From positions 10,168,001 through 10,232,000 of the forward strand of contig CP075493.1 in NCBI GenBank assembly GCA_021613535.1: 64,000 nt of DNA. The letters run 5' to 3'. Made by a program: the position numbers and the translations under genes. Numbering within the stretch: the first letter of the stretch is position 1; each line of letters opens with the position of its first letter. The notes beneath the pieces are model-generated. The model was not told the origin of the DNA, searched no databases, and saw only the letters and a list, made by a program, of their open reading frames with translations. Of the stretch, positions 854 to 26,969 are shown one piece after another. Source of the DNA: Adineta vaga (lineage: Eukaryota; Animalia; Rotifera).

Positions 854-3800
854 ATGTCTCCATTAAGTGGCAAGACATTTGTACTTGAGCTTGGTCGAGA
901 AATTCGTTTTAAAGCTAAACAAGAACTAATTAACTATTTACGTGAACAAAATGCGCAGATTTCATATATATTAACTGCTAGCGTAGGTTTTTCTCTCTCG
1001 ACATATCTGAATCATTATCGATTGAAACTTATTTTTACTCTAGACGGATTATGTTTTGGTTTCGAATGATATTGATACATATAAAACTCGTCGAGCAAAA
1101 CAACTCGGCATACCATTGGTTAATGTTGATTATATTCATGAATGTCGTAAATCAGAAGTTGGAAAAGAACCATCTGATATTAAACGATTTATTGTGACAT
1201 CAGCAGAAGATAAAGAAAACTTCTCAAAAACTGGTACTATACCAGTTTCAGGTTAATATACGAAGGTTTCTTTAGAAAACTTATATTAATACTTCTTCTT
1301 CTTTTGCATAGGAGGAGGAAGTTCGTCAGGTAGTGTAATAAAACCTGTTAAATATGATGTATCAAAAATCAAAATATGGAATTCTGATGATGTGGAATTA
1401 CCATGTTTCGATGAAATTACACATGCTGAAATTGGCAAATGGGCAATCTTCAAAGTAAAAATCTTGAGATAATCAATTGACTCTATTCATTTTCTTGCCG
1501 TTTTCAATAGGAAACAAACGATCATTCAGATATTCATTTTGCGCTTGAATTACAAATCATTTCCGAAGAATATTATCATCAACAAACAAATAATGATTAT
1601 CAATTTCGATTTCGTTATGAAAAACAAACAATTATCAGTTCGAAAGGTAAAACTTCATTAATTCAATATGCCTTCAGTCATGATATTAATGAATTACATC
1701 AATTATTTGCATCGTACTATTATCGTATTGCAACAATGCCAAGAATAACTCGAATTCGAGAATTATTACCCGATAAATTAGGTTCCAAATTATTATTACG
1801 TGTAAGTTACTTTTCTTTCTTTTGCCATAGAAAAATATATTCTTCAATTTTAGTCATTATTTCTTCATCGAATTGATACACAAATGCTCGATGATAATGT
1901 TTGTCAATTGATTGAATCACTTTGGATTGAATCGATTGGAGATTTAAATAAGATTCTTTCTGTTCAACCTGAATCGATTGCATTGAAAACAGTATGACAA
2001 TAGAAAAACAAATGTATTTGAATGTTTATTGTTTTTTTTTCTCAAATATTCTTTTAGATTATCGAGGCTGAAGCTGCTTTACTTGAAATCAAATCTGGTG
2101 GTGAATCAGCATCGGAAGCAGAAACTCGTTTCTATTCACTGATTCCTCATCAATATTCATATCTTATCGATCTTATAACAAATCGACGTGCCTTAATAGA
2201 TAAAATTGATTTATGTCAGGTATATCTTCTTTGCTTGTTGATCATTTCATTGGCTAAATTTTCAAAATTTAGATGTTACGTGATATGCTTACGATCAATG
2301 AATTAACGAATTGGAATATTAAAGCATCAATTGAAGCAAAATATCGAGCATTAAAATGTCATATTGAAAGTATCGATAGAGATAGCCATGAATACTCGAC
2401 CATTAATAATATGATTCATTCATCAACAGATTCGTACGTATTTTTGAATGATTAGAACTCTTTTGAAAAGTATTTGAGATTCTTATAGGAATGAAAAAGT
2501 CATTGTTCATCACATCTATAGTGTTGCAAAACAAATAGATGCATTGAATTTTCGCTCAACACTTTTTAATCAGAAACAACTTTTTCATGGATCGAAATAT
2601 AATAATTTTCTTGGTATTCTCTCACGGTAAATCAATTTAATAAAAGTTCTTTCCAAACATTCATATTTTTTTTCTTGTTATTTAGTGGTTTAATGCTACC
2701 AAAACTAGTTGTAGATGATCTAGGAGTGGCACGTACTGATTTTGGATGTTTGGGATATGGAATTTACTTTTCGGATTCTGTTTCAACATCTTTAAAATAT
2801 ACAACATCAAGTACAACTTGCCCTGGTCGACGCCTATTATGTATATCTCAAGTAGCATTAGGAGAATCAGCAAAATATTATTCATATGCAACGAATTTAA
2901 CTCAACCACCAGAAAATTGCCATAGTACACATGGAGTAAAGAAGACCAATGAAAATAATTCGAAATTTTTCGTAAGAAATTTCCTAGTTTTTATTTCGAT
3001 AAATTGAAATTATTTAGGATGATGAATATGTAATCTATAATCTTGATCAACAACGTTTACTCTACATTGTTGAAGTTTCATGGCAACCACATGATGTTAT
3101 TGATCAACCATTGAAACTATTACCAATTATTCGTGATCATTCAACAAAACAGTTAACGAGTTCGAAAAACGAAAGTAATTGCAAAATTTTACAATTCACT
3201 CTTCATTAATATAAATCTTTAACTGCATTTTTAGTGGATATACCATCATCTATCGAAGATGAAGTAATTCAAGTAGCAGAACAGGATTATGGTTTAGTTT
3301 GTCCATCATCAGGTCAATTAGTGCCATTGAAAGCATTTCATATTCGCGCTCAACTTGTTGATGTAACTGGTGAAGTATGTTTAATTACATTGCTCCTTCT
3401 TTCAATCAATATTATCTATAAATATTTGTTAGGTAGTACTTTATCAAGTATATCATAATACAAGTTCAGTTCCAATCGAAGCTAAATATGTGTTTCCATT
3501 GGAAGAAAATTGTTCTGTGTGTGGTTTCGAAGCTCATATAAACAATAAAGTTATTAAGGGTGTTGTAAAAGAAAAAGAACAAGCGAAACGTGAATATCGT
3601 GAAGCAATCGAAAAAGGTCATGGTGCATATTTAATGCATCAAGAACAACCTGAAGTTTTCAGTGTATCTGTCGGTAATTTACCAGCAAATTGTGAAGTGA
3701 TTATCAAGATTACTTATGTTGCAGAATTATCAATTGAAAATAATGATATTATCTTTCGTTTTCCAGCAAAAGTAGCTTCATGGCAATCGAAACAAGCTTT

Positions 3801-6800
3801 AGAAGCAAAAGATCAAACAATTCTTCCATCGATTAATCTTGAACAAGATAATTCGTCAATGAAATCCGTTGAATTTAGTTTGAAAACATCTATTCGTATG
3901 CCATACGAAATTAGTAAATTATTCTCTCCGACGCATCGTCTTCGACGGAAAGTAACCGATTGTTTAGCCATGATTGAACTCGTTGATAATGTTCTATTAG
4001 AAAAAGATTTTATTCTTTCTATAACATTAAAAAGTATAAATTTACCACGAATGTTAAATGAAACATATGTTGTCTCGGATGAAAACAATAATATCGAATT
4101 AAATGATGAACAATCTCAAGCATGTATGTTAACATTTTATCCGAAATTTGAAATGACAAATAATATCAATGAATTTGTGGAAGTCGTTTTTATTATTGAT
4201 GTATCAAATTCAATGGATGGTAATCATGTTCAACAAGCAAAACAATTAGCACATTTATTTTTAACAAATATGAACAATAATGATGGAAATATTTATTTTA
4301 ATATTGTTACCTTTGGATCAGGTAAGATCGGATGAAGTGAGTTTGATTAATTTTCTTTTCGTTCTTTTAGATAATGATGAATGTTTTCCTATCTCATCAC
4401 CAAATACAAAAGAAAATATTGATAAAGCAAAGCATTTCATTTTGGTTTGTATTATCCTATCAGTTCTTTTGTTCTTGAAGAAAATCTTCTCTTTTGTAAA
4501 TTATAGCATTCACTTGATCATCGTGGTAATACTGATCTTTTCTCTGTTCTTCGTCAATATTCTCTCCTTCCATCTCCATGTAAACTTGGTCGACAATTTA
4601 TTCTTCTTTCTGATGGACATATCAATGATTTGAATTCAATTATAACTTTACTAGAAAATCAACCATCTATGGCACATGATCGATTCTTTACATGTTCAAT
4701 TAGTGATACATCAAATAAACATCAATTAAAACAATTAACTAATGGAGCACATGGTGGCGGTTTAGCAACTGTATTTGATTCAAACTATCGTTCAAAATGG
4801 AAATCGAAAGTTCTTCTCATTCTTGAACATATTCGTCAACCATGTGTAACAAATATATCAATTGATTGGCATGGAAATCTTGATAATCAACAAGTTAAAT
4901 TTACCAATCAAGCACCAAAAATGATTCGATCCTTATTTAATGGTATGCGTTTAACTGTCTATCGATTTATTCAAAATTGTCATAAAGCAACATTGACAGC
5001 AATGATTAATGATCAAGAATTTGTTACAACTGTATTCAGTAATAAAATGACAGAAACACGAGGAACAATTTTACATTGTTTAACGGCACGTGCAATTATT
5101 CATGATTATGAAAATGGTATATTGCATGTAGATGAAAGTGAAAATGAACTGATGAAAAAACAATATAAACAAGATTTAATTGACTTGAGTATAAAATATT
5201 CTGTTGTAAGTTCATTTACAAGCTTTGTGGCTATTGAAGAACGTGATGGACAAGCACTTGAGCCAGGTAGAGTTTTAATTTCAGATTAAAATAAGATTGA
5301 AAAACTTTTCTTTCTTTTTCTTTTCTTTTCTTTTCTTTTCTTTATTAGGTGTTCGCTTACTGGATGTGATGCTTGAACATGATATTGATTTATTGCCATA
5401 TATTGGTTGGGATGGTGATCGATCACAGATTCAAATAATTAAAGAAAAATTACTGGATGCAAAACATTTATTTGATAGTGCATCGATATCAAATAAGATT
5501 CAACTAACAACTGAATATGAAAAACTTTGTCAAAATATATCTTATCGTTCTGGTGGCGATGCAAAATATGATTTAATGTTGGCAATTATTGAAACGTACA
5601 GAACGATGCTAAAAGAAAATAATAAAGCATTAGAATTAGAAGAAAAAATGCAGCTTGGTAAAATTGAATTGTTTTTTATTATGTATTTAGTCGAATTGAT
5701 TTTGTATTCATAGAACTATTGACTGAAATAACAAATGCAACGGCTGATGAAAGAAAGATATTGGAAAAACGTTTGGAAGAAGTTAACGCACGTATTAATA
5801 CAGCTGAATCGTTAGTTAAATTTGTAATAGGAGACAAATTTTAGAAATTTTGATTCTTGTTTTAGGGAAAGCCAAGACGAAGGTGCAAGTAGCGAGGACA
5901 TCGATAGTTCTCAAGATTCCTGCGACGAAGAAGTAAACTGTAGTAATATTCTTCTTCGGACTGTAAGTTATTTATCAAAGTATTGAAAAAACTTTCTGAA
6001 ACTAAATAACTGTCATTTCTTTCTATGAAAAGTGTTCAATGGGTGGTGACGATTCATGTATGGATAGTGCATTTGCAAATATTATTCTAAATACTTTGTG
6101 TTGTTGTATATTTTATAGATTCAATGGTGGATTGCGATATAGACTATCCTCTTGATTTTGAAGTTTCCTCTACAGCTTCTAAGCCAGCTATGAATCCATA
6201 TAAATCAAAAGGCACAGCCATTGCTTTAAGTTCGTCTCATGATGAATCTGAAGGATCTGATGATATGGGTTTTGGCTTATTTGATGACGGCGTACCTGCA
6301 TCATATTCACCAGTTGTATCGAACAAATTGCGCTCATCAATGATAGACGATAAGAAAGATACAGAAAAAATTGCGGCGGCTGCAAAGATACCTCAAATGC
6401 TCGAAACTATGAGAGAATACGAAGATGATGAAGACGAAGCGGACGATTTTGGTTTTGATTTGTTTGGCGATTATTCTTCGTCATCACCAGCTGCTACAGT
6501 GAATCTTATAGAAAAAGAGGAACATAGTAAACGAAGCACGAGTTTAGCGAAAAGACAATCACCACCAAACGTACAAGTAACTCCCATCAGAGATTTACTT
6601 GAAGAAACTAAAGATCTTCTTAAATCTAATTTAAATAAGATTTTAGATAGAAGTAAGTATACTTTGAAACACATTTTTCTTTATTTATATTTGTAAATTT
6701 ATTATTATATTCAATAATAGGTGACATGCTTTCTTCTCTGTCCATAAACGATGAACGAGCCAGTCCAAAGAAACGCAAGGAAGTATCAAAAAAGGAATCT

Positions 6801-9505
6801 AAACCAGTACCTTCTGATTCAGCTGTTTTTTCAAACTTGTCACATACATCCCATACGTCTCAAATACCAACAACACAAAGCTTCAGTTTTTCTAATCTAC
6901 ATTCACAACCACAACAGCAGCAGCAGCAACATCTGAAACAGCAAGAATCTTCGATAGATGGTGATAAGTGCCTCATAACGCCGGCATTGTTTGATTTTAC
7001 AGGCAGCAGTCTTTCGGCGAACAGTGCAGATTTCATATCTGCAACGGCATCCGCACCCTCATTTTCATTTTCGAACACTGCGTTCAACAACTATTATCAG
7101 AGTGATGTATTGCCAGACTTTGGTATTTCAACTCTGCCTCACCCTAGCATGCCATCCTTTACGTTTGGTGCGCCTCAATTTAACAACAATACGTGCAGTG
7201 ATCCATTCTCTACATCGGCTGGCACTCTTTCGGCAAGTACAAATATGGGCTTTAATACTGGACCACCACCACCACCTCCTCCTATGGCTGCTGGATTTTT
7301 TGGTAGCACACCACCTAGTTCCAATTCTTTGTTTCAACCAACCACTGCTAGTGGCATGTCATACAATCCTCTGTTGCCAGATGCGATGCTTCAACAAGTA
7401 CTGCTACCAGCACAACCTCCTCCTCCTATGGCTGCTGGTTTCTTTGGCAGTACTATGTCGCCAGGTGCGGTTTTTCAACAACTACCACTACCACCACCAC
7501 CACCACCTCCTCCTCCTATGGCTGCTGGTTTCTTTGGCAGCACTACATCTAGTTCCAATTCTTTTTATCAACCAACTATTGCTACTGGCATGTCATATAG
7601 TCATATGCCACCAGGTGCTATGCCTCAACAAGTACTACTACCACCACCACCACCACCACCTCTTCCTGCTCCTCCACGACTTCAATCAATAAAAACAATA
7701 GCAAATGAATCGGGTTTCAAAATGTCATTAGCTGATGACGAGGAATCATCTCCGATGTATTCTGCGTTACAGCATAAACAACGCTCGAGCATGGTGTCAC
7801 GAGATAGAGGTCGTGGAGTAGTTTTCGGAGGAAGATGCGCAACTGATGGAGCTGAAGTATTAAGTGGGAAAAAATCAGAGATCATTAAAGAAATATCTGT
7901 AAATGATTGTGCTCGATATTGTGACGTATGTGTAGACAAAATAACATTTAAATCTTATACAAAATACTTTTCTTATTGTAGACACGTTCCGACGAAGCCT
8001 CTAATGCACCAGTAAAATCTGCAACATCAGACTATACAGAAGACTACAATATATTTAGTAAAAAGAAATCGAGTTCCAAACGGTACGAATTTTAGAAAGA
8101 CAAAATACCATTCATGTTCACTAAAATGGAGCTATTAAATTTATTTTAGTGCACCCGAGAAGAAACCAGTGACCAAATATGTTGACGATTGTCTGTACGA
8201 TCTTTTACTACTTGATGTTACACCACTTGGTTTAGGTATTGAAGATGTGAATGGTGAAATGTGTACAATTATTGAACGCAATCGTACAATTCCAACGAAA
8301 TCAAACGTTTATTCTATATTTACCAATGCTTATGCTTATCAGACAACAGCTACTATACGTATTTTTCATGGTCAACATAAATTAACAAAATATAATGTTA
8401 GTAAAATACTTACACAATTGAAATCGAATTGAAATAATTTTATTTTGTTTTAGATATTTCTTGGTGAACTTATTCTTAAAGATTTAACACCAAATTTTGC
8501 TTCACAAACATTACAAATATCAATTGTTATGGATGTTGCTAATAGTTTCCTACAAGTCAATGCGGAAGAACCACGATCAGGAGCTAAAGCTATGATTAAA
8601 ATTAGTGCATCAGATTGTAAGAATCCATTAACCAATATGTATTCAAAATAAATCGTATGTATTTAAATTTATTATAGATTCACTTAGTGCAACCGAAATT
8701 GAACGACATATTACATATGTCGAAAGTGATCCTAACTATAGAGCTGTAGATTTTAACGATGCACAAAAAAATAATCGTCAATACAAGGTCGGTACCAGCT
8801 TTCAGAAAACAAATTCATTCTAAATCTCGATTATTTTAGTTGAAAGGTGATACAGAAAGTACGGCCATTCGTTTTACAGGTAATATAGAAAGTTCGAACG
8901 ATGTTTTCAATTTTGATCGACCAAAAACTATTCAATTAATTTCAACAACTCTAAATGAAATTAAAAAAATACAATTACCAAATGGATCGTTCGATATCAA
9001 TGAAGATTTTACTAAATTATTTTCAATTCCGATGAAAAATTTTGATGAACTTAAAAAATACTTATGTTCACAAGGTTTTAATTCATTTGGTAAGAATGAA
9101 TAAAAAATGATAAAATAATCTAGAAGAAGAATCTTTTCTTTTAGCATTAAATGTACAACAAGATATTATACATCTCATTGCAACAGGTATTGTTCTTCTA
9201 CAATTGTTATTACAAGTACCCGTATCGGATAGAAAAGGATATTTAGTTCCATTCGATAGTGAACAATTAAAAGTAAGAAACGAAATTCTGTTGTTTGTTT
9301 TTTCTTTCGATTGATTGATTTGATTTCTTTTCAGACGATTTTTCATTGTCATTTACCGAAAGTTTTGATAGAAAATGTTAATAAAGCAATTGATTTTTAT
9401 GAACAAAAACGTTTACGCTGTGGAATATATTGTGAACAATTAGAATTGAAATATTCATCATGGGAAAAATTGATTCAATACGGAATTTTTCAAATCGAAA
9501 ATTGA
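854..9505 (+). CDS. PARP4: PARP4 / vault poly(ADP-ribose) polymerase-like protein, ~26 introns, roughly 2,400 aa (estimate): BRCT - WGR-like - PARP regulatory - PARP catalytic - VIT - vWA - insert region - Hsp70 SBD - C-terminal MVP-interaction-like domain
   Basis: Manual splicing gives an N-terminal BRCT (TDYVLVS..KTRRAKQLGIPLVNVDYIHEC). Catalytic motifs LFHGS (His 2586), GIYF..SLKY and DDEYVIY (Glu 3024) form an intact H-Y-E triad. VIT: IEAKYVFPLEENCSVCGFEA..VGNLP. vWA MIDAS: IIDVSNSM. Then SFTSFVAIEER and DIDLLPYIGW. The C-terminus QLPNGSF..LIATGIVL..YCEQLELKYSSW matches the PARP4 C-terminal domain. Stop TGA at 9503-9505. Confidence 0.92.
7263..7660 (+). repeat. Internal coding tandem repeat in PARP4 (3 units beginning P(n)MAAGFFGS; units 1 and 3 full, unit 2 truncated)
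   Basis: cctcctcctatggctgctgg(a/t)tt(t/c)tttgg recurs near 7275, 7419 and 7509. Units 1 and 3 continue similarly through ctagttccaattcttt..caaccaac..ggcatgtcata..caacaagtact. Confidence 0.9.
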
Positions 9506-13800: not shown

Positions 13801-16080
13801 ATGTCTCGCAGTAACATTCGATCAAATAGCAGCAGACCTTTTTGTAAGTACCATTGTCTTTCATTGCTTCTTTTCTATTCATAAGAAACAAATGATTTGA
13901 ATTTTTTATGACGCATTACATTAATAGTTACTATTCATATATGTTATACTTTTGCCAATTTTATTTTGACATCCATCTATCTTCATTAGAAAATACACTG
14001 TACAACGGCAAGTAAAACTTGATCTATGTCAACTCGATTAGTTAATTCTTATCTTTTCTTTCGATTCTTGTTAGTCGAAGTGTATCAATGTTATGCATGA
14101 GAAAATTTCCATTAGTATTCAGTTTCAAGGAAGCATCTCTAACAAAAAAGAAAGTCTTCGAATGTTTTGTTTTCATCGAATTATAGAACAAGTAAAGCGT
14201 GTTATTACGATCTGATTATCAACTTAGTATCGACCATTATCAAATTATTTATATTAATGAGGTGTCCTCAAATGACAAAGTCATTTTAATTCTGTTGAAA
14301 AGAAGAAAAAAAACTCTTTCCTAGTGACAAATATAGATTTTCATTATGAAACTTCAACCAAGAAATCTTCTCTTTCCTTTGTTTCATAGAAATCAATTAT
14401 TTAAATGGAAAAATCTCTTCTATTTCCTATTTGTGTCTCATACTTATATACCTGTAGTGATCACAGCATGCTAGTTGATTAGCGAAAAAGATCTTTTTTT
14501 TTTGTGAAAAGCATGCTTAAGAATAGAATCATACACTACATGCTGTTATACTATTACAATAACAAGTTTCCATCTTTGCTCCAGTCGATCACGTATAGCT
14601 TGCAAAGACTTTTGCATCTTTACTATCGTTTCTAATTTGATCAATGATGAAATGAATAATATAACACATTTAACCTTAGCAAAAAAGAGAAAGAAAGAAA
14701 AACAAATTGATAATCATGTCGATAAGAATTTTCTCCAGATGCAAGTATAAGAGTACTGAGGGAATACAACAAAAAAAAACAACATATGAATAACATGAAA
14801 ACAAAATTCTCTTTTTGATGTCATCATTTTCCTTTTCCTGTTTCATTTGACTTCATCTCTTCATCAATTTAGATCGAGTTAAAGTTGTCAATGGCATGTG
14901 TTCAACAACATCCATAGATGAAATTGAAAATATTCATCTACTCAACGTTCTCAATTGGTCACCTTTCGAAGATTCAAATATCAATAAATCATCAACAACA
15001 ATTAAAGATGATAATGATTCTAAGTTAAAGAACTCTTACAATGCCGTACAACTTTCAATTGAATTACAAAAGAAAATGTTAAAGTAAACAAACATCACTA
15101 AGATTTTTTTTTCATATTGTTTTATTTAGTTTAAAATCTTTATTTGTTGATTCATCTGGTCATCTTGTAAACTATTCACAACTACGTTCAAGTAGTGTTT
15201 ACAATGATTTATGTGACATGGCGAAATATTTAACGACAATCAATCTTGATAATGTCACTGAAAATGAAAGAAAAACGTTTTTTATCAGTAATTATCAATA
15301 GATATCGATTTTTTGCTTGTAGAAGAGAAATACTTTCGTTTTTAGATCTTTATAATGTCTTGACCATTCATGGGATTGCATCGTTAAGTGATTTACCAAA
15401 ATCTACTTTTGATTTAAATCAATTCTGGAAAACGACAGCTTATAAAATCGGTCCACATATTTATTCATTAGATGACATTGAACATGGCATCTTACGCGGT
15501 TCGAAAAACTTCACATGTTTCATATAAATTCATAAACAAGAGAATGTCTGCTTTTTTAGGTAACAAACCTCATTCAAATTGTACTCAACGACATTTTACA
15601 TATAATGATCCTCGTACAAGATATTGCATGCGTCGTTGTGATCCACGTATTCATTTTGCATTGAACTGTGGAGCACGATCATGTCCAATCATATCTATTT
15701 ACTCATCAACAAATCTTGAAAAAGCTTTGAATATGTCAACAACATCATATTGTAATGCAGAAATCGATATTATTCCTCAAAATGCTGAAATTCATTTATC
15801 GAAAATCTTTCTTTGGTATAAAACTGATTTTGGACGTACAGAATCAGAAGTGCTACGGTAAGTTTTCCATTCATTTCATCTTCTTAATCACGTGTAATAT
15901 TTGAATTTTAGTTGGATTGCAAATTATATTGACGAACCAAAACAATCATTACTGAAAACTGTACTAGAACAACATGGAACCAAAGATGGTATACAAATTT
16001 CATATAAAATCTATGATTGGATGTTGAATAATCATGATGGTTTAATATCGAGTACGACTAATGTCAATCTTTGTCAATAA
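13801..16080 (+). CDS. DUF547-domain protein
   Basis: LYNVLTIHG..YKIGPHIYSLDDIEHGILRGN..DPRIHFALNCGARSCP..LSKIFLWYKTDFG..YDWMLN are DUF547 motifs. Exon 1 (13801-13843) splices in frame over a ~1 kb intron to 14873. Stop at 16078-16080. Confidence 0.88.
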
Positions 16081-17060
16081 AATGATGATTGTTAACATTT
16101 AGTTCTTGAACTTGTACTGATAAGAAAAGAAAGACAGTTTATTTTTTGTTTTGTGAAGAATAATAATAAAAAAGGACGAAAAACAAAGAGTGAAAATGCA
16201 AGGAAATAGCCAACATCAAACATTACAATAAAATGAATTATGTTTGTGATGTGTCTATGTATGATTCTTTCAACATTTAATAGTTGAAAGAATACAATAT
16301 TAGTCAAGCTATCTGAAGCTTGTGGCCAAAAATATAGATGAAACTATAATAGATCTTGTTTCGATTAAGTAGAAAATGATGAACAAAACCTTGTTTCGTA
16401 ACATGATTTTTGATTGCTTGACATACAGGAAGGTGTTCATCATTCGACTGATCGTCACAGACCTGATTTAAAATAATTAAAAATCGTATGATCATCCTGG
16501 AGCTCGTTTACAAGGAATCTAATGGTGAGAATAGTCAACTGAACGAATATCTTGTGATTCTACAATTTTATATAAATATACAACAGCGATCTGACTAAGA
16601 TATTGCTGTATTATCAAAACAGAACAAAATGGCACCTCAAAAGCAAAAAGAATTCAAGATTTAAATGAATATCTTTACATATGTTTTATTATGATCGAAG
16701 TGTGATGCAGTCGGTGAAAAACAGACGACGTGTGTTCGAAATGGAAAAGTGATTAATTTCAAATCTGAAGAATTTATTAGTTACTTGTTTCACGAGATTG
16801 TTTCGTCTAATGTAAAATAGAAACTCTCATTCCCATGTGAATTCAAGCATGATAGTTATCTTTGTAATTTTTACGAAACAACAGATTAAAACAATAAAAA
16901 AATATTCGCAACGAGTCTTCTCATATACTTGGTACACCTATTACCGACATATTGTATCAATGAGATCAAAAATAGTAGCGTCATTTTCTAATTTAAGTGA
17001 CGATTCAGAGTGTCAAAAAAGATGAATTTCAAAATGCAGTTATTTATTCCACTTCATCTG

Positions 17061-18108
17061 TTATCTAATTGGAAAGATCTCTTCTATTTTCTATTTTTGT
17101 CTCATACTAATATACCTGTGGTGATCACAGCGTGTTAGTTGATTAGCGAAAAAGATCTTTTTTTTGTGAAAAACATGCTTAAGAATAGAATCATACACTA
17201 CATGCTGTTATACTATTACGATAATAAGTTTCTATCTTTTCTATTTTCATCTTTATTATCGATTCTAATTTGATCAATGGTGAGACGAATAATATTACAC
17301 ATTTAGCCTTAGCAAAAGAAGAAAGAGAGAAAGAAAGAACAACAAATTGATAATCGTGTCGATGAGAATTTTCTCTAACTGCAAATATAAAAGCACCAAG
17401 AGGATGCAAAGAAAAACAACATATAAATAACATGAAAACAAAATTCTCCTCTTGATCTCATCCTTTTTCTCTTTCTGTATTCTTCAAAGATTTAAATACT
17501 AGTAAATCATCAGCAACAATCAAAGATGATAATGCCACCGGAAACGAACGAAAAATGTTTTTTATCAGTAATTATCAATCGATATCGAAAGATTCGCTTG
17601 CAGAAAAGAAACGTCTTCATTTTTAGATCTTTATGTCTCGATCATTCATGAAATTGCATCGTTAAGTGATTTGCCGAAATCTATTATTGATTTGAATCAA
17701 TTTTGAAAAGCAACAGCTTTACTTATGAAATTTATTTTGCGTTGAATTGTGGAGTACGATCATATCTATCTGTTCATAAACAAATATTTAAATTCAGAAG
17801 TGTTGAACTATAATATTCGATATTATCGATTATAAGTTGTATTGATAGATTATATTTATAACGTTAGGATGTCGAGTACAGTTAATGTCAATTTTTATCA
17901 ATGTAAAATTATGATTGTTAACATTTCATTCTTGAACTTATGATGATAGGCGAAGAGTCATATTAAACAGGAAGAACAGTGTACGATATTATCAAATAAA
18001 GAACAAAGGAATGATTTATTTCAGAAATCGAAAAAAAAGGTGAAAATGTAAGGAAAGAGACAACATCAAACATTACAATAAAATGAATTATTCTTTTGAT
18101 ATGTGTAT
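17061..18108 (+). pseudogene. Eroded tandem duplicate of the DUF547 gene (copy of ~14397-16260)
   Basis: Colinear similarity to the parent's intron 1, coding remnants and 3'UTR. It lacks exon 1, has a TGG>TGA stop at 17704-17706 and carries several internal deletions. Confidence 0.9.
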
Positions 18109-18362
18109 ATTTTTGTGGAAGGTCAATATTGATATTTCAACTATCACAAACGGCGATAGATAATGATAATATTTTTGATATGTAAAATTTTTTCATTATT
18201 AAATATTCGCATCTGACTACTCACAAAAACAAAGAATGGAATATCTATCTTCATAGAATTTACCAGAGGTATAATGATATGTAAAGGAGCCAAAAAAATG
18301 GAATCAAATGAAACAACATTCACCGGTGGGGTTAACACTATTAGAATACGTACGAACTAATT

Positions 18363-21838: not shown

Positions 21839-24800
21839 TTACGTGGATGAATCTTGAGTACTAATTACATTTAACAAAGTAAGTGGTAAGTCATGTAAAG
21901 TAAGTTTATTATCAATTACAACATCGATAGTACCTGTTAAAGATAAAGGAATCTTGCCAGCTAATAGAGGTGTTAGAAGAGACACCATTGTTGCTAATTT
22001 TGCTGTAATTTTAACATCAATGTACTCTGTTAAAACTTCGGCAAAAGGACCAATATCGATACGCTGATTATCAGTAACAGTGCCAACTTGTTTATCTTCG
22101 TTTAATTCAGCACCATAATCTGCTCTGACATTAATTCGTGTCACAGCTAATGTTGAACTAAATGGGTTTTTCAATACAAGACGTGTCGAAAGTGTTTTGA
22201 CAGTACCAAGTGGAATACCAAGTATTTGTAAAGCGCTTAGTTTTTTCAAAAGAACTTCTCGAACAAGTGTTCTGTCACCATAAAGGCCAGGAGCTGTTGC
22301 CTGAATCTGTAAACCAGCAATAGCTGTCGATAATAGAGGAACATTTGTTCCTACTGAATTATTTGGTAATATTCCATGTAATTCTACATCATTATCTATT
22401 CCACATATCATACGAGAAATAAATTGTCGAGCTACATCAGTATTTTTAGGTGTGATAGTAAATGTTCCTGTTGCATTTAATATTGTACTATTCCCTTTAG
22501 GATCAAGATAAAATGGATCGATAATAACTAAACCAAGAGAAGTTCCACTAGTTTTATCACGTAAGTCAAGCGAAAGACGACCACCATCAAGAATATTAAC
22601 AACCGATGGATTAGTCATTTTTGTTGTTATATGAAGTGCTAGTTCATTGGACGAGATTGCTCCTGTTAGATCAATCTCATCAATATGTAAAAGTCCATTA
22701 GCAAATCGATCATAACCCGTCAAAATAAGAGTATCACTTACTGGAATATCCGTTAAAGTAATATTACCAATTCGAACTTCTGCTAATGCTGTAGCTAAAC
22801 CATTAATTGTTACTGATACACTTTTTTTCAAAACAAGATCAGCAGCAAATGCTTGAAATGATGTTCTATCTAATACAATAAGTTCTTGTTTAAAAAAATT
22901 CATCGAAAGCTCATTAGTTGTTTGATTATGTTGAACAGGCAAATCATGAAGTATCATTTGACCCATATTAGGTCCATTATTAAAACGCATCATATAATCA
23001 ATACTTGTTGTTAAGGCTTTGAATGTCATGTGAACATTTGATGGTAATTCAAATAAAACAGATAATTCACCTGTCACATAAACTCTACTAACGTTTGCTC
23101 GATCAAATTCAATACCAAAATCTAATACTTCAACTCGACGAATTAATTGTGTTTGTATGCCATCAAGATCTGCTTCTATAGAAAGACCACTGATCGTTAA
23201 ATCCATACCAGTAGGATTTTCACTTGTAGATAAATCATGAAACAAGGTTACTGATTGTATTTGATTATTGAGATATGCAGAAAAAAAATTACCAACAACA
23301 GGTAAATCACTTTCTTCTCTTGGAACAAGTAGACTAAAACGAAGAATAATTATAATCAAATAAAAATATTCATTGGTAATTATACAAACCCGTAAAGCAT
23401 CATATTATTACTGCCTGGTGTCAGAGCTAGGATATCAATTGGTACATGACCAATAACTGTTCCAGTATCAGTATCAGCCATTAAAAGTTCAAATTTTTCC
23501 AGTCGAACATCAGTCACACCAGAATTTCCAATCGTTACATTGATAGAAATTCGAAGAGCATTATTAGTTTCTCCGTCGACTGTGATGGCATGCACACGCA
23601 CATCACTAAGACCTTCAAGACCAACTAACGAAACATCATTCGAAATAGAAATACCATTACTATTCAAAGCACCAAGAGCGAATGAACCAGTAATAGATGC
23701 GATGCCAACAACACGAAAATGAATCTGATCAGTTTTATTTGCATTGATGAAATTTTGAGCAAACTTCTCATAAGCTTTTCCCGTACCACTAATTAATAAA
23801 TATCTGTCATTGAATGCTGATTCAAATGTAATACTATCTATTTGTTTTACTGCTGCTTCAGAAACATTTAACATGCCAACAGGATTATTATCATAATAAA
23901 GAAAAACACCCATGTCCATTGTTTGAATTTGAAGTGGAGATTGTTGGCCAAGAGGTGAATTGATTTTAAAAGTAATCGATGCTGATAATTTGACTTTCTT
24001 TTCAGTTGCTGATGGAATAAGTGACATCGAATTGAATATCAATGAAGGAATTAATTGCTCATCAAAAGTTGGCATTGGAACAATCAATGAGAGACCTTTC
24101 ATACCATTGGCAAGTAAAGAATACGAAGTAGCATTTGGTCCAGCTACTGCACCGACTCGACTCGTTTTACCTATGAGAAAATTTTCGATAACATCAGAAA
24201 GAGCTTTATATGCTTCAGGAGATTTTGATTGTAATTCACCAGAAAACGGTACCGCATTTGCACCAGAATGTAAAGTTATATTACTATCAATCGAATTAAC
24301 ATAACCAATCGTTTGATCATTATAACGTAAAGAAAAGTGTAATGCACCTATACGAAAAGAAAATGAGGTTAGAGAAACAAATTAGCGAAAGATTTCTTTT
24401 ACCAAGATCAATGTTAAATATTGATGGATTACCAATTTCGATAATAATATCCACAAAAATATGTTTTGCAGTCGATCGACGAAGATCAACTGTTTTAATA
24501 CTTACATTTTGAAGACCATTTAAAGCATTGAGTGTTACTTTTTTATTAAATGGAATATTCGAATAAGTAGGCATTACGGTCGATATCGGTTGAATCGATG
24601 CTTTTGCTGTTAAATGCCATACAACACTGGATTCAAATATAAGCGAACGAGTGAAATTATTAAAAGCTCCAAGATTAGATACAACAAATGGCGAATCAAT
24701 GGGAATGATAGTCGGTTGATCACCATCTCCAGTAATCTTGATCGATTGTTCATTTCTTACAACTCCAACATCATCAACATTGATGATAAGTGGTGAAAGA

Positions 24801-25282
24801 ATTGTTGCTGGAATTGATCCAGTACGAGATAATTCTAATTCAGCTCGTAGACGAAAACTATCATTTTTAATATCTTCAATATTAATCGATCGAAAAGATA
24901 ATTCAGTTTTTTCAATCGTTGAACGAACAATCGCTGGAACAATAACATAGAGTACAATTATAATGCTAAGAAGAATTATAAGTAAAGCAATAGCAATACA
25001 TAAAAGAATAAATAATTTTCGACGCATTTGAAAACCTTCAAAACGACCACACATTGTACAAAGTGTTACTTTTTTCGATGATGATTTTATCGGTCTATCC
25101 AGCCAATCTATTTCGTCGTCTTCATTAGATGATGATACTAATTCTTGTTTGTCATTAGATGTCTTCAAATTAGTTTTTACATAATCCTCGGCAAAGTCTC
25201 CAGTAAAATCACCAGCATTGCTACTAGATGTTTTAATGTAAGCTACAGACTGATCTGAAGAATCAGATTTTTTTTTACCCAT
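21839..25282 (-). CDS. Single-pass type II membrane protein with repeated DUF3712/LEA-2-like beta domains (fungal Tag1-like), 1110 aa
   Basis: Three exons (introns 24348-24402 and 23334-23389) give 3333 coding nt in frame. Basic RRK then a TM helix, VPAIVRSTIEKTELSF, and repeated NPS..I.LG / F..F / V.L.G..G units typical of DUF3712 proteins. Confidence 0.75.
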
Positions 25283-26969
25283 TGATAAATTTATATCTGA
25301 AACGAAAGAAATAGTAGAGAATATTTTCATTAATTAAGCTCTAAATCCAGAAATTGTTTATCGTATGAAATGTATAGTTTTATAAAAGCCGACAAAGTGT
25401 AAAAGAGCAATCTCTTTTCCTCATAATAATATTTAAAATTGTTTTTATTTTATACGCAGTTTTACAGTTATCTGTTTTAGTTTCTCGTCAGTTCGTTTTC
25501 AATCTGCTTCCTAAAGAATCTGCGAATATTGATAACTTTGTTTTTTTTGCCTTGTCTTTATCAACTGTAGATAAAGAATAGATGAATTTCATTGATGAAG
25601 ATGTCGTTACATTTTGAAAAATATTTTAAATGTAAGTGTAGTATTGATATTCGTTTGTTCGTTCGTACTTATATTTAAAGTTTGCGGACTTATATTTCAG
25701 GTATCAACAGAGCACGCCGTAAGTTTTCATTGGCTCCTCTAAATATATTTACATGAATATATACAACAGATTTTTCTTAGACCATCAATCAGATGACATA
25801 GAAATCGAGTAAACCGATAAGGAATACAAAAATGCTTTTAATCAATCGCCAAAAATAATACTTTAATCTCTATATTTGTATTTTCATCACTTGTAAAGAT
25901 ATACAGGATAAAATGATCACTCCTGAATTATTTTCATTATGTTTCAATCGAAAAAGGTCATACTATCTTCTCAGTAGGATCATTCGATTCCCAGATAGAA
26001 TATCTAACGAAATATCATATATCTAAGCTTGTTTTCTTTCAAACGTAATAAATCTATTAATAATGTCATCTGGTAGCATGATATACATTCCATCGAGTAA
26101 TAAGTTATGAAAATCATGCTAGATTAACGAATGCATCTGGAGATTATGTATATCAAAAAATGGGTGACATATTATGTTGATCTCATCAGAATTAAAAAGC
26201 ATCAGTCATTTTATTAAAAATGTTCGATGATTACAAGATGCGTACTTATTATTCATTCCTGTATATCATCATTTTCTTTCCCGGTTTTGCAGTATAGAAA
26301 TATTTTTCTCGATATTTTCGAAGAATATATTGGACATCATGTTCACAATACGTCGAATAATTAAACCTCAATACTAATCGATGCTTCCTTTTTTATGTAT
26401 ACAAATGTATGCATGCATGTTTGCATAGAGTTTTTCAGTGCACGTTCATCAGCTAAAGACCAAAATGAATAAGAACTATCAGTTTTGTACACATCTCTCA
26501 TGATAGCTTACCACCTAGCGTATGTCGATGTACGAGTTGATATTCTTTCTCACTAATCTGCGTTTTATCTCGTTCTTTGGAGTGTATCTGCTTATTATTA
26601 TTATGTTTTTTCACGTGTTTTTGATAAGCCACACCCATATAGTGCCATATATTTCACTCAATAGACATCTCATGTAAATAAATTATATTTTTCGACAAAT
26701 TTTTTAGTTGCATTTTTCTGAATTTTGTTTTTTGGTTGCACTTGAAATTTAAACGTCCTCTCAACATCGTTGACTATTTCATATTTTTTTCTTTCACAAC
26801 TACGACTACTTATTTATAGTAACAGCAAAAGAAAGAAGCGGAACGGCAAGAAAAGAAAAGCAACACACTCCAAATAAACATATACACTCTAAGCACATGA
26901 TAGTTATATAACGCAGCATAACAAAATAAATTCATAAGCATTAGTGCAAAGTTATTTTATTAAAATAAT

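Follow-up and report, generated by a model that had tools for sequence, protein, structure and literature searches.

Several known defence proteins carry pieces or mimics of host targets that vary across lineages and paralogues, among them the integrated decoys of plant NLRs, the bait region of alpha-2-macroglobulin and the tripwires of NLRP1 and CARD8. The bait of ITIH4 is a variable, proline-rich stretch that follows its vWA domain, and the MIDAS is needed to hold the enzyme (Pihl 2021, PMC7793589). Published accounts of PARP4, the vault PARP, give the same order of BRCT, PARP, VIT and vWA domains, variable region and C-terminal domain that we find at the rotifer locus reported here, with the fast-evolving region in the same place (PMC2964712, PMC4245714, PMC4038475). 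Surveys of 2010 and 2014 confined the clade 5 PARPs to animals and amoebozoans (PMC2964712, PMC4245714). Citarelli et al. (2010) treated core domains only, and the string "ribosom" appears neither in the accessible text of their paper (PMC2964712) nor in the Dictyostelium VIT-vWA paper (PMC10539598). Appended 14-3-3, actin and ubiquitin have been known in PARP4-like proteins since Perina et al. (2014), who took them as links to pathways; a bait reading is absent from the accessible text of that report (PMC4245714). In the matching region of mammalian PARP4, Daugherty et al. found recurrent positive selection and proposed that it binds pathogen proteins, the accessible text describing no host look-alikes there (PMC4038475). 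As far as their accessible text goes, these PARP4 papers make no mention of a ribosomal stalk motif, an Hsp70 piece, calmodulin or VAMP (PMC2964712, PMC4245714, PMC4038475), and a wider search of largely open-access article text found no paper that gives PARP4 a stalk motif, an integrated decoy or a tripwire role.

The window analyzed here is a stretch of 64,000 nucleotides from Adineta vaga contig CP075493.1. The features that concern us are as follows.

854..9505, + strand: PARP4 (vault PARP) gene of bdelloid-rotifer type, 27 exons, 2370 aa, an open model built from GT..AG introns
854..1251, + strand: N-terminal BRCT domain, two exons (Pfam E=0.002, second exon alone)
2489..3174, + strand: PARP catalytic domain (PF00644, E=1e-5 and 8e-12)
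3433..5266, + strand: VIT and vWA domains (PF08487, E=1e-33, and vWA families)
5866..8194, + strand: fast-changing linker rich in Ser, Pro and acidic residues, the proposed bait region (model residues 1361-2029)
6119..6652, + strand: exon with both stalk-like motifs (acceptor joint in spliced contigs, donor inferred)
6241-6288, + strand: stalk mimic 1, reading DESEGSDDMGFGLFDD, canonical P0/P1/P2 type, then an extra Asp
6421-6471, + strand: stalk mimic 2, reading EDDEDEADDFGFDLFGD, GFDLFG type, then an extra Asp
7260..7680, + strand: polyproline tracts in which a short Phe-Phe-Gly unit occurs three times (direct reading)
8195..8730, + strand: Hsp70 piece, interdomain linker and substrate-binding domain with no ATPase domain (PF00012, E=5e-13; model residues 2030-2169, three exons)
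8918..9505, + strand: PARP4 C-terminal domain (profile of six bdelloid C-termini)

The first-pass annotation had named the host gene as PARP4, and this identification holds: the window protein is a PARP4 and not a stalk protein. The exon encoding its vWA region is 83% identical to Rotaria proteins, the best among 50 relatives from a name search, and the nearest named non-rotifer relatives carry PARP4 annotation. Pfam on single exons recovers BRCT, PARP regulatory and catalytic, VIT and vWA domains in that order; the BRCT match is weak because the domain is split by an intron and the exons were scanned singly, which also accounts for the weak PARP regulatory match. The H-Y-E triad of a predicted active enzyme was located by motif at model residues H444, Y484 and E555, and the MIDAS residues are present as DxSxS at 907-911 and D1008. 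A profile of the six bdelloid C-termini finds the shark PARP4 C-terminus at E=5e-12 and that of lungfish PARP4 at 5e-9; in human PARP4 this is the vault-binding domain. The model is one of 12 open GT..AG combinations that differ by a few residues, and many of its joints appear in spliced contigs. Neighboring genes, judged by eye (choline transporter, WD40/U-box, Tudor, kinesin light chain and others), show no link to PARP4. Also seen by eye were partly duplicated stretches at 14500-18140 around a small gene (14850-16080), with decayed copies near 17190-18140. In a large minus-strand gene at 21839-25333, the long exons encode repeated beta-rich units, and there is a single membrane segment at the N-terminus.

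The motifs would matter little if their exon were left out of the mature message, a condition raised in the earlier annotation; spliced transcripts contain it. Contigs from four of four runs (two studies), taken as RNA by automatic guess, join 5810>5866, 5962>6033 and 6057>6119, all GT..AG introns, and contigs covering 6119-6535 and 6240-6523 include both motifs. The same four runs support a micro-exon of 25 bases at 6033-6057 with a purine-rich acceptor. The donor joint 6652>6721 is missing from the joints listed (15 of 30) and is taken from the open 2370-aa model; if that intron were retained, the frame would stay open for 74 codons beyond copy 2, so that both copies are internal either way.

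Two internal copies of the stalk motif had been proposed. Both peptides lie where they were placed, in one reading frame, and are the sole stalk-type pattern matches in a six-frame scan of the window; copy 1 is canonical as claimed, and copy 2 proves to be a P3-type variant. The claimed nine-residue match of copy 1 at 6259-6285 is exact and equals the animal and yeast stalk end. Given the composition of exon 6119-6652, its chance is about 1.6e-9, and 200,000 shuffles of that exon gave 2e-5 pattern matches per shuffle. Among the matches listed for this nine-mer in the literature, the titles deal with stalk proteins, toxins, antibodies or proteomics. Against the PDB, all 24 chains matched by copy 1 are P0, P1 or P2 and no other protein (E 0.1-1.6), and copy 2 has no match at E<=10. 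The core of copy 2, DFGFDLFG, is identical in eight of eight residues to the C-terminus that a phosphopeptide table gives for Arabidopsis P3 (PMC2778640). From the PDB matches of copy 1 only and the P3 identity of copy 2, we class copy 1 as a canonical and copy 2 as a variant stalk end. An Atlas search with copy 2 returned stalk-protein clusters at 0.88, below the 0.9 line of that search. The idea that copy 2 is an acidic motif of eEF1B type was set aside when Pfam gave only PF00428 (E=2.8).

The likeness is confined to the stalk tip. PF00428 is matched at profile positions 68-88 of 88 only, the N-terminal dimerization or rRNA-binding domain being absent, and its score of 19 bits is far below the Pfam cut-off of 28.1. 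Stalk proteins end at this motif, whereas 913 residues follow copy 1 and 852 follow copy 2 before the end of the protein. The motif exon found none of 1423 longer-protein candidates at E<=0.001, the motif being very short for such a search.

We surveyed the family in a pool of 200 proteins comprising 50 named matches, the best 150 of 1032 among 50%-identity representatives (one shared) and the window model, and kept the 102 with a near-complete vWA-region match and at least 300 residues beyond it; most of these relatives are unverified gene models. With a pattern set after viewing matches (three acidic residues within eight, then hydrophobic-G-F-x-L-F-D/E/G/A), 23 motifs were found in 18 of the 102 proteins, the window included, all after the vWA region. 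The 103,430 residues ahead of the vWA region in the same 102 proteins hold none, and shuffles of the whole tail or of 15-50-residue blocks give an expected count of 0 to 0.005. Carriers include five Rotaria proteins, oyster (Magallana), scallop (Argopecten), the millipede Chamberlinius, Dictyostelium purpureum with four copies, Heterostelium, Cavenderia, Synstelium and Euglena gracilis. Beyond the 102, the motif also occurs in a clownfish model. None was found in the 22 proteins of the clade with the named shark and lungfish proteins. On a FastTree tree of the VIT-vWA core, at least eight changes are required for the 15 carriers among 93 proteins, gain and loss being indistinguishable. Full PARP4-type proteins also occur in Euglena, Diplonema and Entosiphon (P0199, P0183, P0176), where contamination or transfer is possible.

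All 23 motifs are internal, with at least 88 residues following each. An Asp or Glu stands directly after the would-be end in 16 of the 23, against a background of 0.16, the motifs not being independent of one another. This pattern suggests that an acidic side chain may stand in for the lost end, and in the mechanism proposed below the extra acidic residue would replace the missing terminal carboxyl. The sequence MGFGLF is kept exactly in 10 of the 23, and six are of the GFDLFG type, common to the window and proteins of the dictyostelid clade. A literature search for a possible variant of the stalk end in dictyostelids gave no match.

The stalk motif is one of many pieces of host proteins found in this linker. 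Pfam detects a non-core host domain after the vWA region in 32 of 80 non-bdelloid relatives, the kinds being ubiquitin, 14-3-3, actin, synaptobrevin, Hsp70, Ras, kinase, eIF5A, Slu7, IRS and FG repeats. The actin piece in relatives' linkers is N-terminal, covering actin residues ~5-65 only, and many inserts are fragments too small to do the parent protein's job. Our own profiles and short motifs mark 50 of the 102 proteins, 17 of which hold two or more kinds; these profiles include their own seeds, so that the counts are partly circular, and three VAMP matches are weak. The oyster linker carries an actin piece, the stalk motif and an Hsp70 piece, and P0121 holds these three with ubiquitin; dictyostelid linkers hold 14-3-3, polymerase-II heptads and stalk motifs; those of Hydra, Nematostella and Mytilus hold an actin piece, and that of Euglena ubiquitin and the stalk motif. 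Among 21 bdelloid-type proteins, six have the stalk motif, and one slot is occupied by an Hsp70 piece in seven and by calmodulin in five. A histone H4-tail motif was found in two of the 102 proteins, and H3-tail and tubulin-tail motifs in none of the 102.

The Hsp70 piece of the window matches DnaK, BiP and Hsc70 in the PDB at E ~1e-11 and is split by two introns whose joints are seen in spliced contigs. It recurs in six other bdelloid-type proteins, the oyster and three further relatives, and is 58-64% identical among bdelloid paralogues while the linker around it is unalignable. In P0030 an Hsp70-end-like peptide immediately precedes the stalk motif. The inserts of P0011, P0021, P0040 and P0062 lie between the vWA and C-terminal domains, which excludes a fusion of neighboring gene models in these cases; a delta-COP match in P0038 may be such a fusion. 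A 14-3-3 remnant in the helical region of the window model (1226-1360) was considered and dropped, with no match at E<1e-3.

Several further inserts were observed. Calmodulin is near-complete in the linkers of P0011, P0013, P0015, P0032 and P0040, and P0043 and P0031 were added by motif; bdelloids hold many PARP4 paralogues with differing inserts. One Dictyostelium purpureum linker (P0161, 1323-2112) combines 14-3-3, polymerase-II heptads, polyproline and four stalk motifs with what appears by eye to be a WASP-type WH2-central-acidic stretch. A synaptobrevin/VAMP SNARE piece lies in the linker of a vertebrate protein, lungfish PARP4 (P0062, 1333-1385), and likewise in Pelomyxa P0157 and P0141. 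Phe-Gly-rich repeats occur in the linkers of the window (7260-7680), P0070, P0131 and P0047, with a Pfam nucleoporin FG match in P0131; these repeats might mimic nucleoporin FG motifs.

The linker that holds these pieces has 10% Pro and 16% Ser, compared to 3% and 9% in the core, and is hardly alignable even to close relatives. Against this background, copy 1 is identical in 13 of 18 residues to P0024 (flanks 17/80 and 15/42) and in 12 of 18 to P0045, and copy 2 in 14 of 20 to P0021 (flanks 12/80 and 8/42); flank identity beside motifs is 14-36% in close relatives. Comparison with 12 relatives shows copy 1 lost or blurred in 7 (2-6 of 18 identical). The environmental locus L002, 85% identical in the core and the sole one of five such loci extending into the linker, holds the two motif types in reverse order between flanks that do not align. 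Among 40 of 144 variant rows listed, 36 variants are exonic, with alleles and homeologues possibly mixed: 12 silent and 6 changed in the core, 3 silent and 12 changed in the linker. Leaving aside eight linker variants in a possibly misplaced repeat, the linker count is 1 silent and 6 changed (p=0.03 versus the core). The sole silent non-repeat linker variant lies inside copy 2, and three changes fall within 10 codons after it. Judged from the sequences compared, the stalk likeness is real and kept by selection.

We lean, if only slightly, toward a reading in which the linker offers pathogen enzymes a bait or integrated decoy, and in which the stalk motifs would be baits for stalk-binding foreign proteins. 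The pieces share no common pathway, are often too small, differ between paralogues and sit in the fastest-changing region, and it is for these reasons that we read the linker as a bait line. The stalk look-alikes also share it with actin, ubiquitin, calmodulin, 14-3-3 and Hsp70 pieces in relatives, which makes a bait line likely. The parents of these pieces are common docking sites, substrates or activators of bacterial and other pathogen toxins and effectors. Positive selection on the mammalian region (PMC4038475) and the ITIH4 bait in the matching position (PMC7793589) lead to the same reading. A pathogen enzyme that docks on the stalk would be diverted to PARP4: the foreign protein, which could be a ribosome-inactivating protein, a ribotoxin or a viral factor, would engage the bait, and the neighboring vWA/MIDAS module would clamp the captive by analogy with ITIH4. 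The PARP domain might then ADP-ribosylate the captive or raise an alarm, and the C-terminal domain might tether the trap to vaults; these last two steps are speculative. Of the two functions suggested in the first-pass annotation, a toxin decoy or an eEF2-directed shut-off of translation, the decoy gains considerable support, the motif being one of many host-protein pieces family-wide. The eEF2 idea gains nothing specific, because the motif is absent in 84 of 102 proteins, close paralogues included, and is interchangeable with pieces unrelated to translation.

Some observations weigh against a bait. The terminal carboxyl of the stalk makes a salt bridge in the archaeal stalk-EF1A structure (PMC4267659), and the last Asp matters for binding of ricin A and Shiga A1 (PMC6162817, PMC3280276, PMC6822507, PMC5086656); the missing free C-terminus counts against both the bait and the eEF2-recruitment readings. 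Copy 2 alters two of five residues required in the Shiga A1 alanine scan (PMC3280276). In the accessible text of these papers on the stalk with toxins or EF1A, no C-terminally extended motif is assayed (PMC3280276, PMC6162817, PMC6822507, PMC5086656, PMC4267659). Several close paralogues have also lost or blurred the motif, which speaks against a bait, as does its absence from all 22 proteins of the shark and lungfish clade. The literature on rotifers and ribosome-inactivating proteins yielded nothing related, and we know of no stalk-binding toxin from rotifer pathogens.

An alternative that we regard as unlikely, though worth holding in view, is that the motifs recruit eEF1A, eEF2 or GCN2 to PARP4 as ADP-ribosylation substrates or as a stress switch, the other inserts recruiting their own normal partners. 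Both copies have the LF pair needed for EF1A binding (PMC4267659), the H-Y-E triad is in place, and the host-pathway links drawn by Perina et al. from appended actin, ubiquitin and 14-3-3 (PMC4245714) would agree with such a role. The factor touches the free carboxyl end of the stalk, however (PMC4267659), and an arms race fits better than a housekeeping link both with the patchy occurrence of the motif (18 of 102, at least eight changes among 93, swapped order in close orthologues) and with a single slot that holds fragmentary inserts of unrelated pathways in a fast-changing region.

Convergence on a short motif specific to PARP4 (an acid run, then G-F-x-L-F), with some other partner such as its own vWA domain, the vault or a trafficking adaptor, strikes us as improbable. 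It would explain why the six GFDLFG-type motifs are often followed by Asp-Tyr, which is absent from the stalk end, why looser DLFG/DIFG forms occur in bdelloid paralogues, and why a long-protein search with the four-motif region of P0161 retrieved no more than 4 of 364 candidates, each of them a dictyostelid PARP4. Against it stand the exact MGFGLF of 10 motifs and the nine of nine residues in copy 1; the GFDLFG form, found in dictyostelid PARP4s as in copy 2, is itself a natural stalk end, and loss in most relatives is unexpected for an internal structural partner. Finally, we give little credence to tolerated debris, in which pieces of highly expressed mRNAs would have been copied into a permissive disordered linker without function: inserts do appear and vanish, several are degraded, and transcripts of the donors (stalk proteins, actin, ubiquitin, calmodulin, Hsp70) are plentiful, but the motif core persists while its flanks turn unalignable, the Hsp70 piece is kept among bdelloid paralogues and now has introns of its own, D. 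purpureum holds four motif copies, and there are no comparable pieces ahead of the linker.

Extended to the whole family, the bait-line model becomes a more doubtful proposal, which we offer tentatively. PARP4 could be an ancient cytosolic trap for pathogen enzymes, with vaults as its cage and the linker as a decoy menu that changes across animals, amoebae and euglenids, in which the vWA metal site would clamp and the PARP domain would mark the captive. The menu would comprise the stalk tip, the Hsp70 hinge and substrate domain, an actin loop, ubiquitin, 14-3-3, calmodulin, VAMP, Ras, and histone and polymerase tails, and in bdelloids the gene would have grown into a family whose members offer different baits, much as plant NLRs do with their integrated decoys.

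The bait-line model makes the decades-old question of what vaults and PARP4 do testable, as it names candidate ligands and the key residues: the LF of the motif, the MIDAS and the catalytic Glu. It would also account for the positive selection in the matching region of mammalian PARP4. If true, it would extend the integrated-decoy immunity of plant NLRs to an enzyme common to animals, amoebae and euglenids, and would provide a naturally occurring mimic of the ribosomal stalk tip at an internal position.

Taken together, the window's PARP4 resembles several known systems in part. Like the stalk proteins P0/P1/P2/P3 (PF00428), it has an acid run followed by MGFGLFD (copy 1) or FGFDLFG (copy 2); unlike them, it carries the motif internally and lacks a dimerization or rRNA-binding domain. 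Like ITIH4, it combines VIT and vWA domains, MIDAS residues included, with a variable, proline-rich stretch after them (PMC7793589). ITIH4 is a plasma protein that acts outside the cell, captures host proteases once they have cleaved it and lacks an enzyme domain (PMC7793589), whereas the window's PARP4 is cytosolic, has a PARP domain and bears putative baits that are recognizable copies of other proteins, any capture by them being putative. Trapping by the ITIH4 route would thus be an extrapolation by analogy to ligands that do not cleave the bait. Variable pieces of host targets at one site of a conserved scaffold are also what defines an integrated decoy, a likeness we claim only for the way of working. 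Unlike the NLRs, alpha-2-macroglobulin, NLRP1 and CARD8, the window's PARP4 has no NB-ARC/NACHT, LRR, thioester or FIIND domain, and its output would be ADP-ribosylation or trapping.
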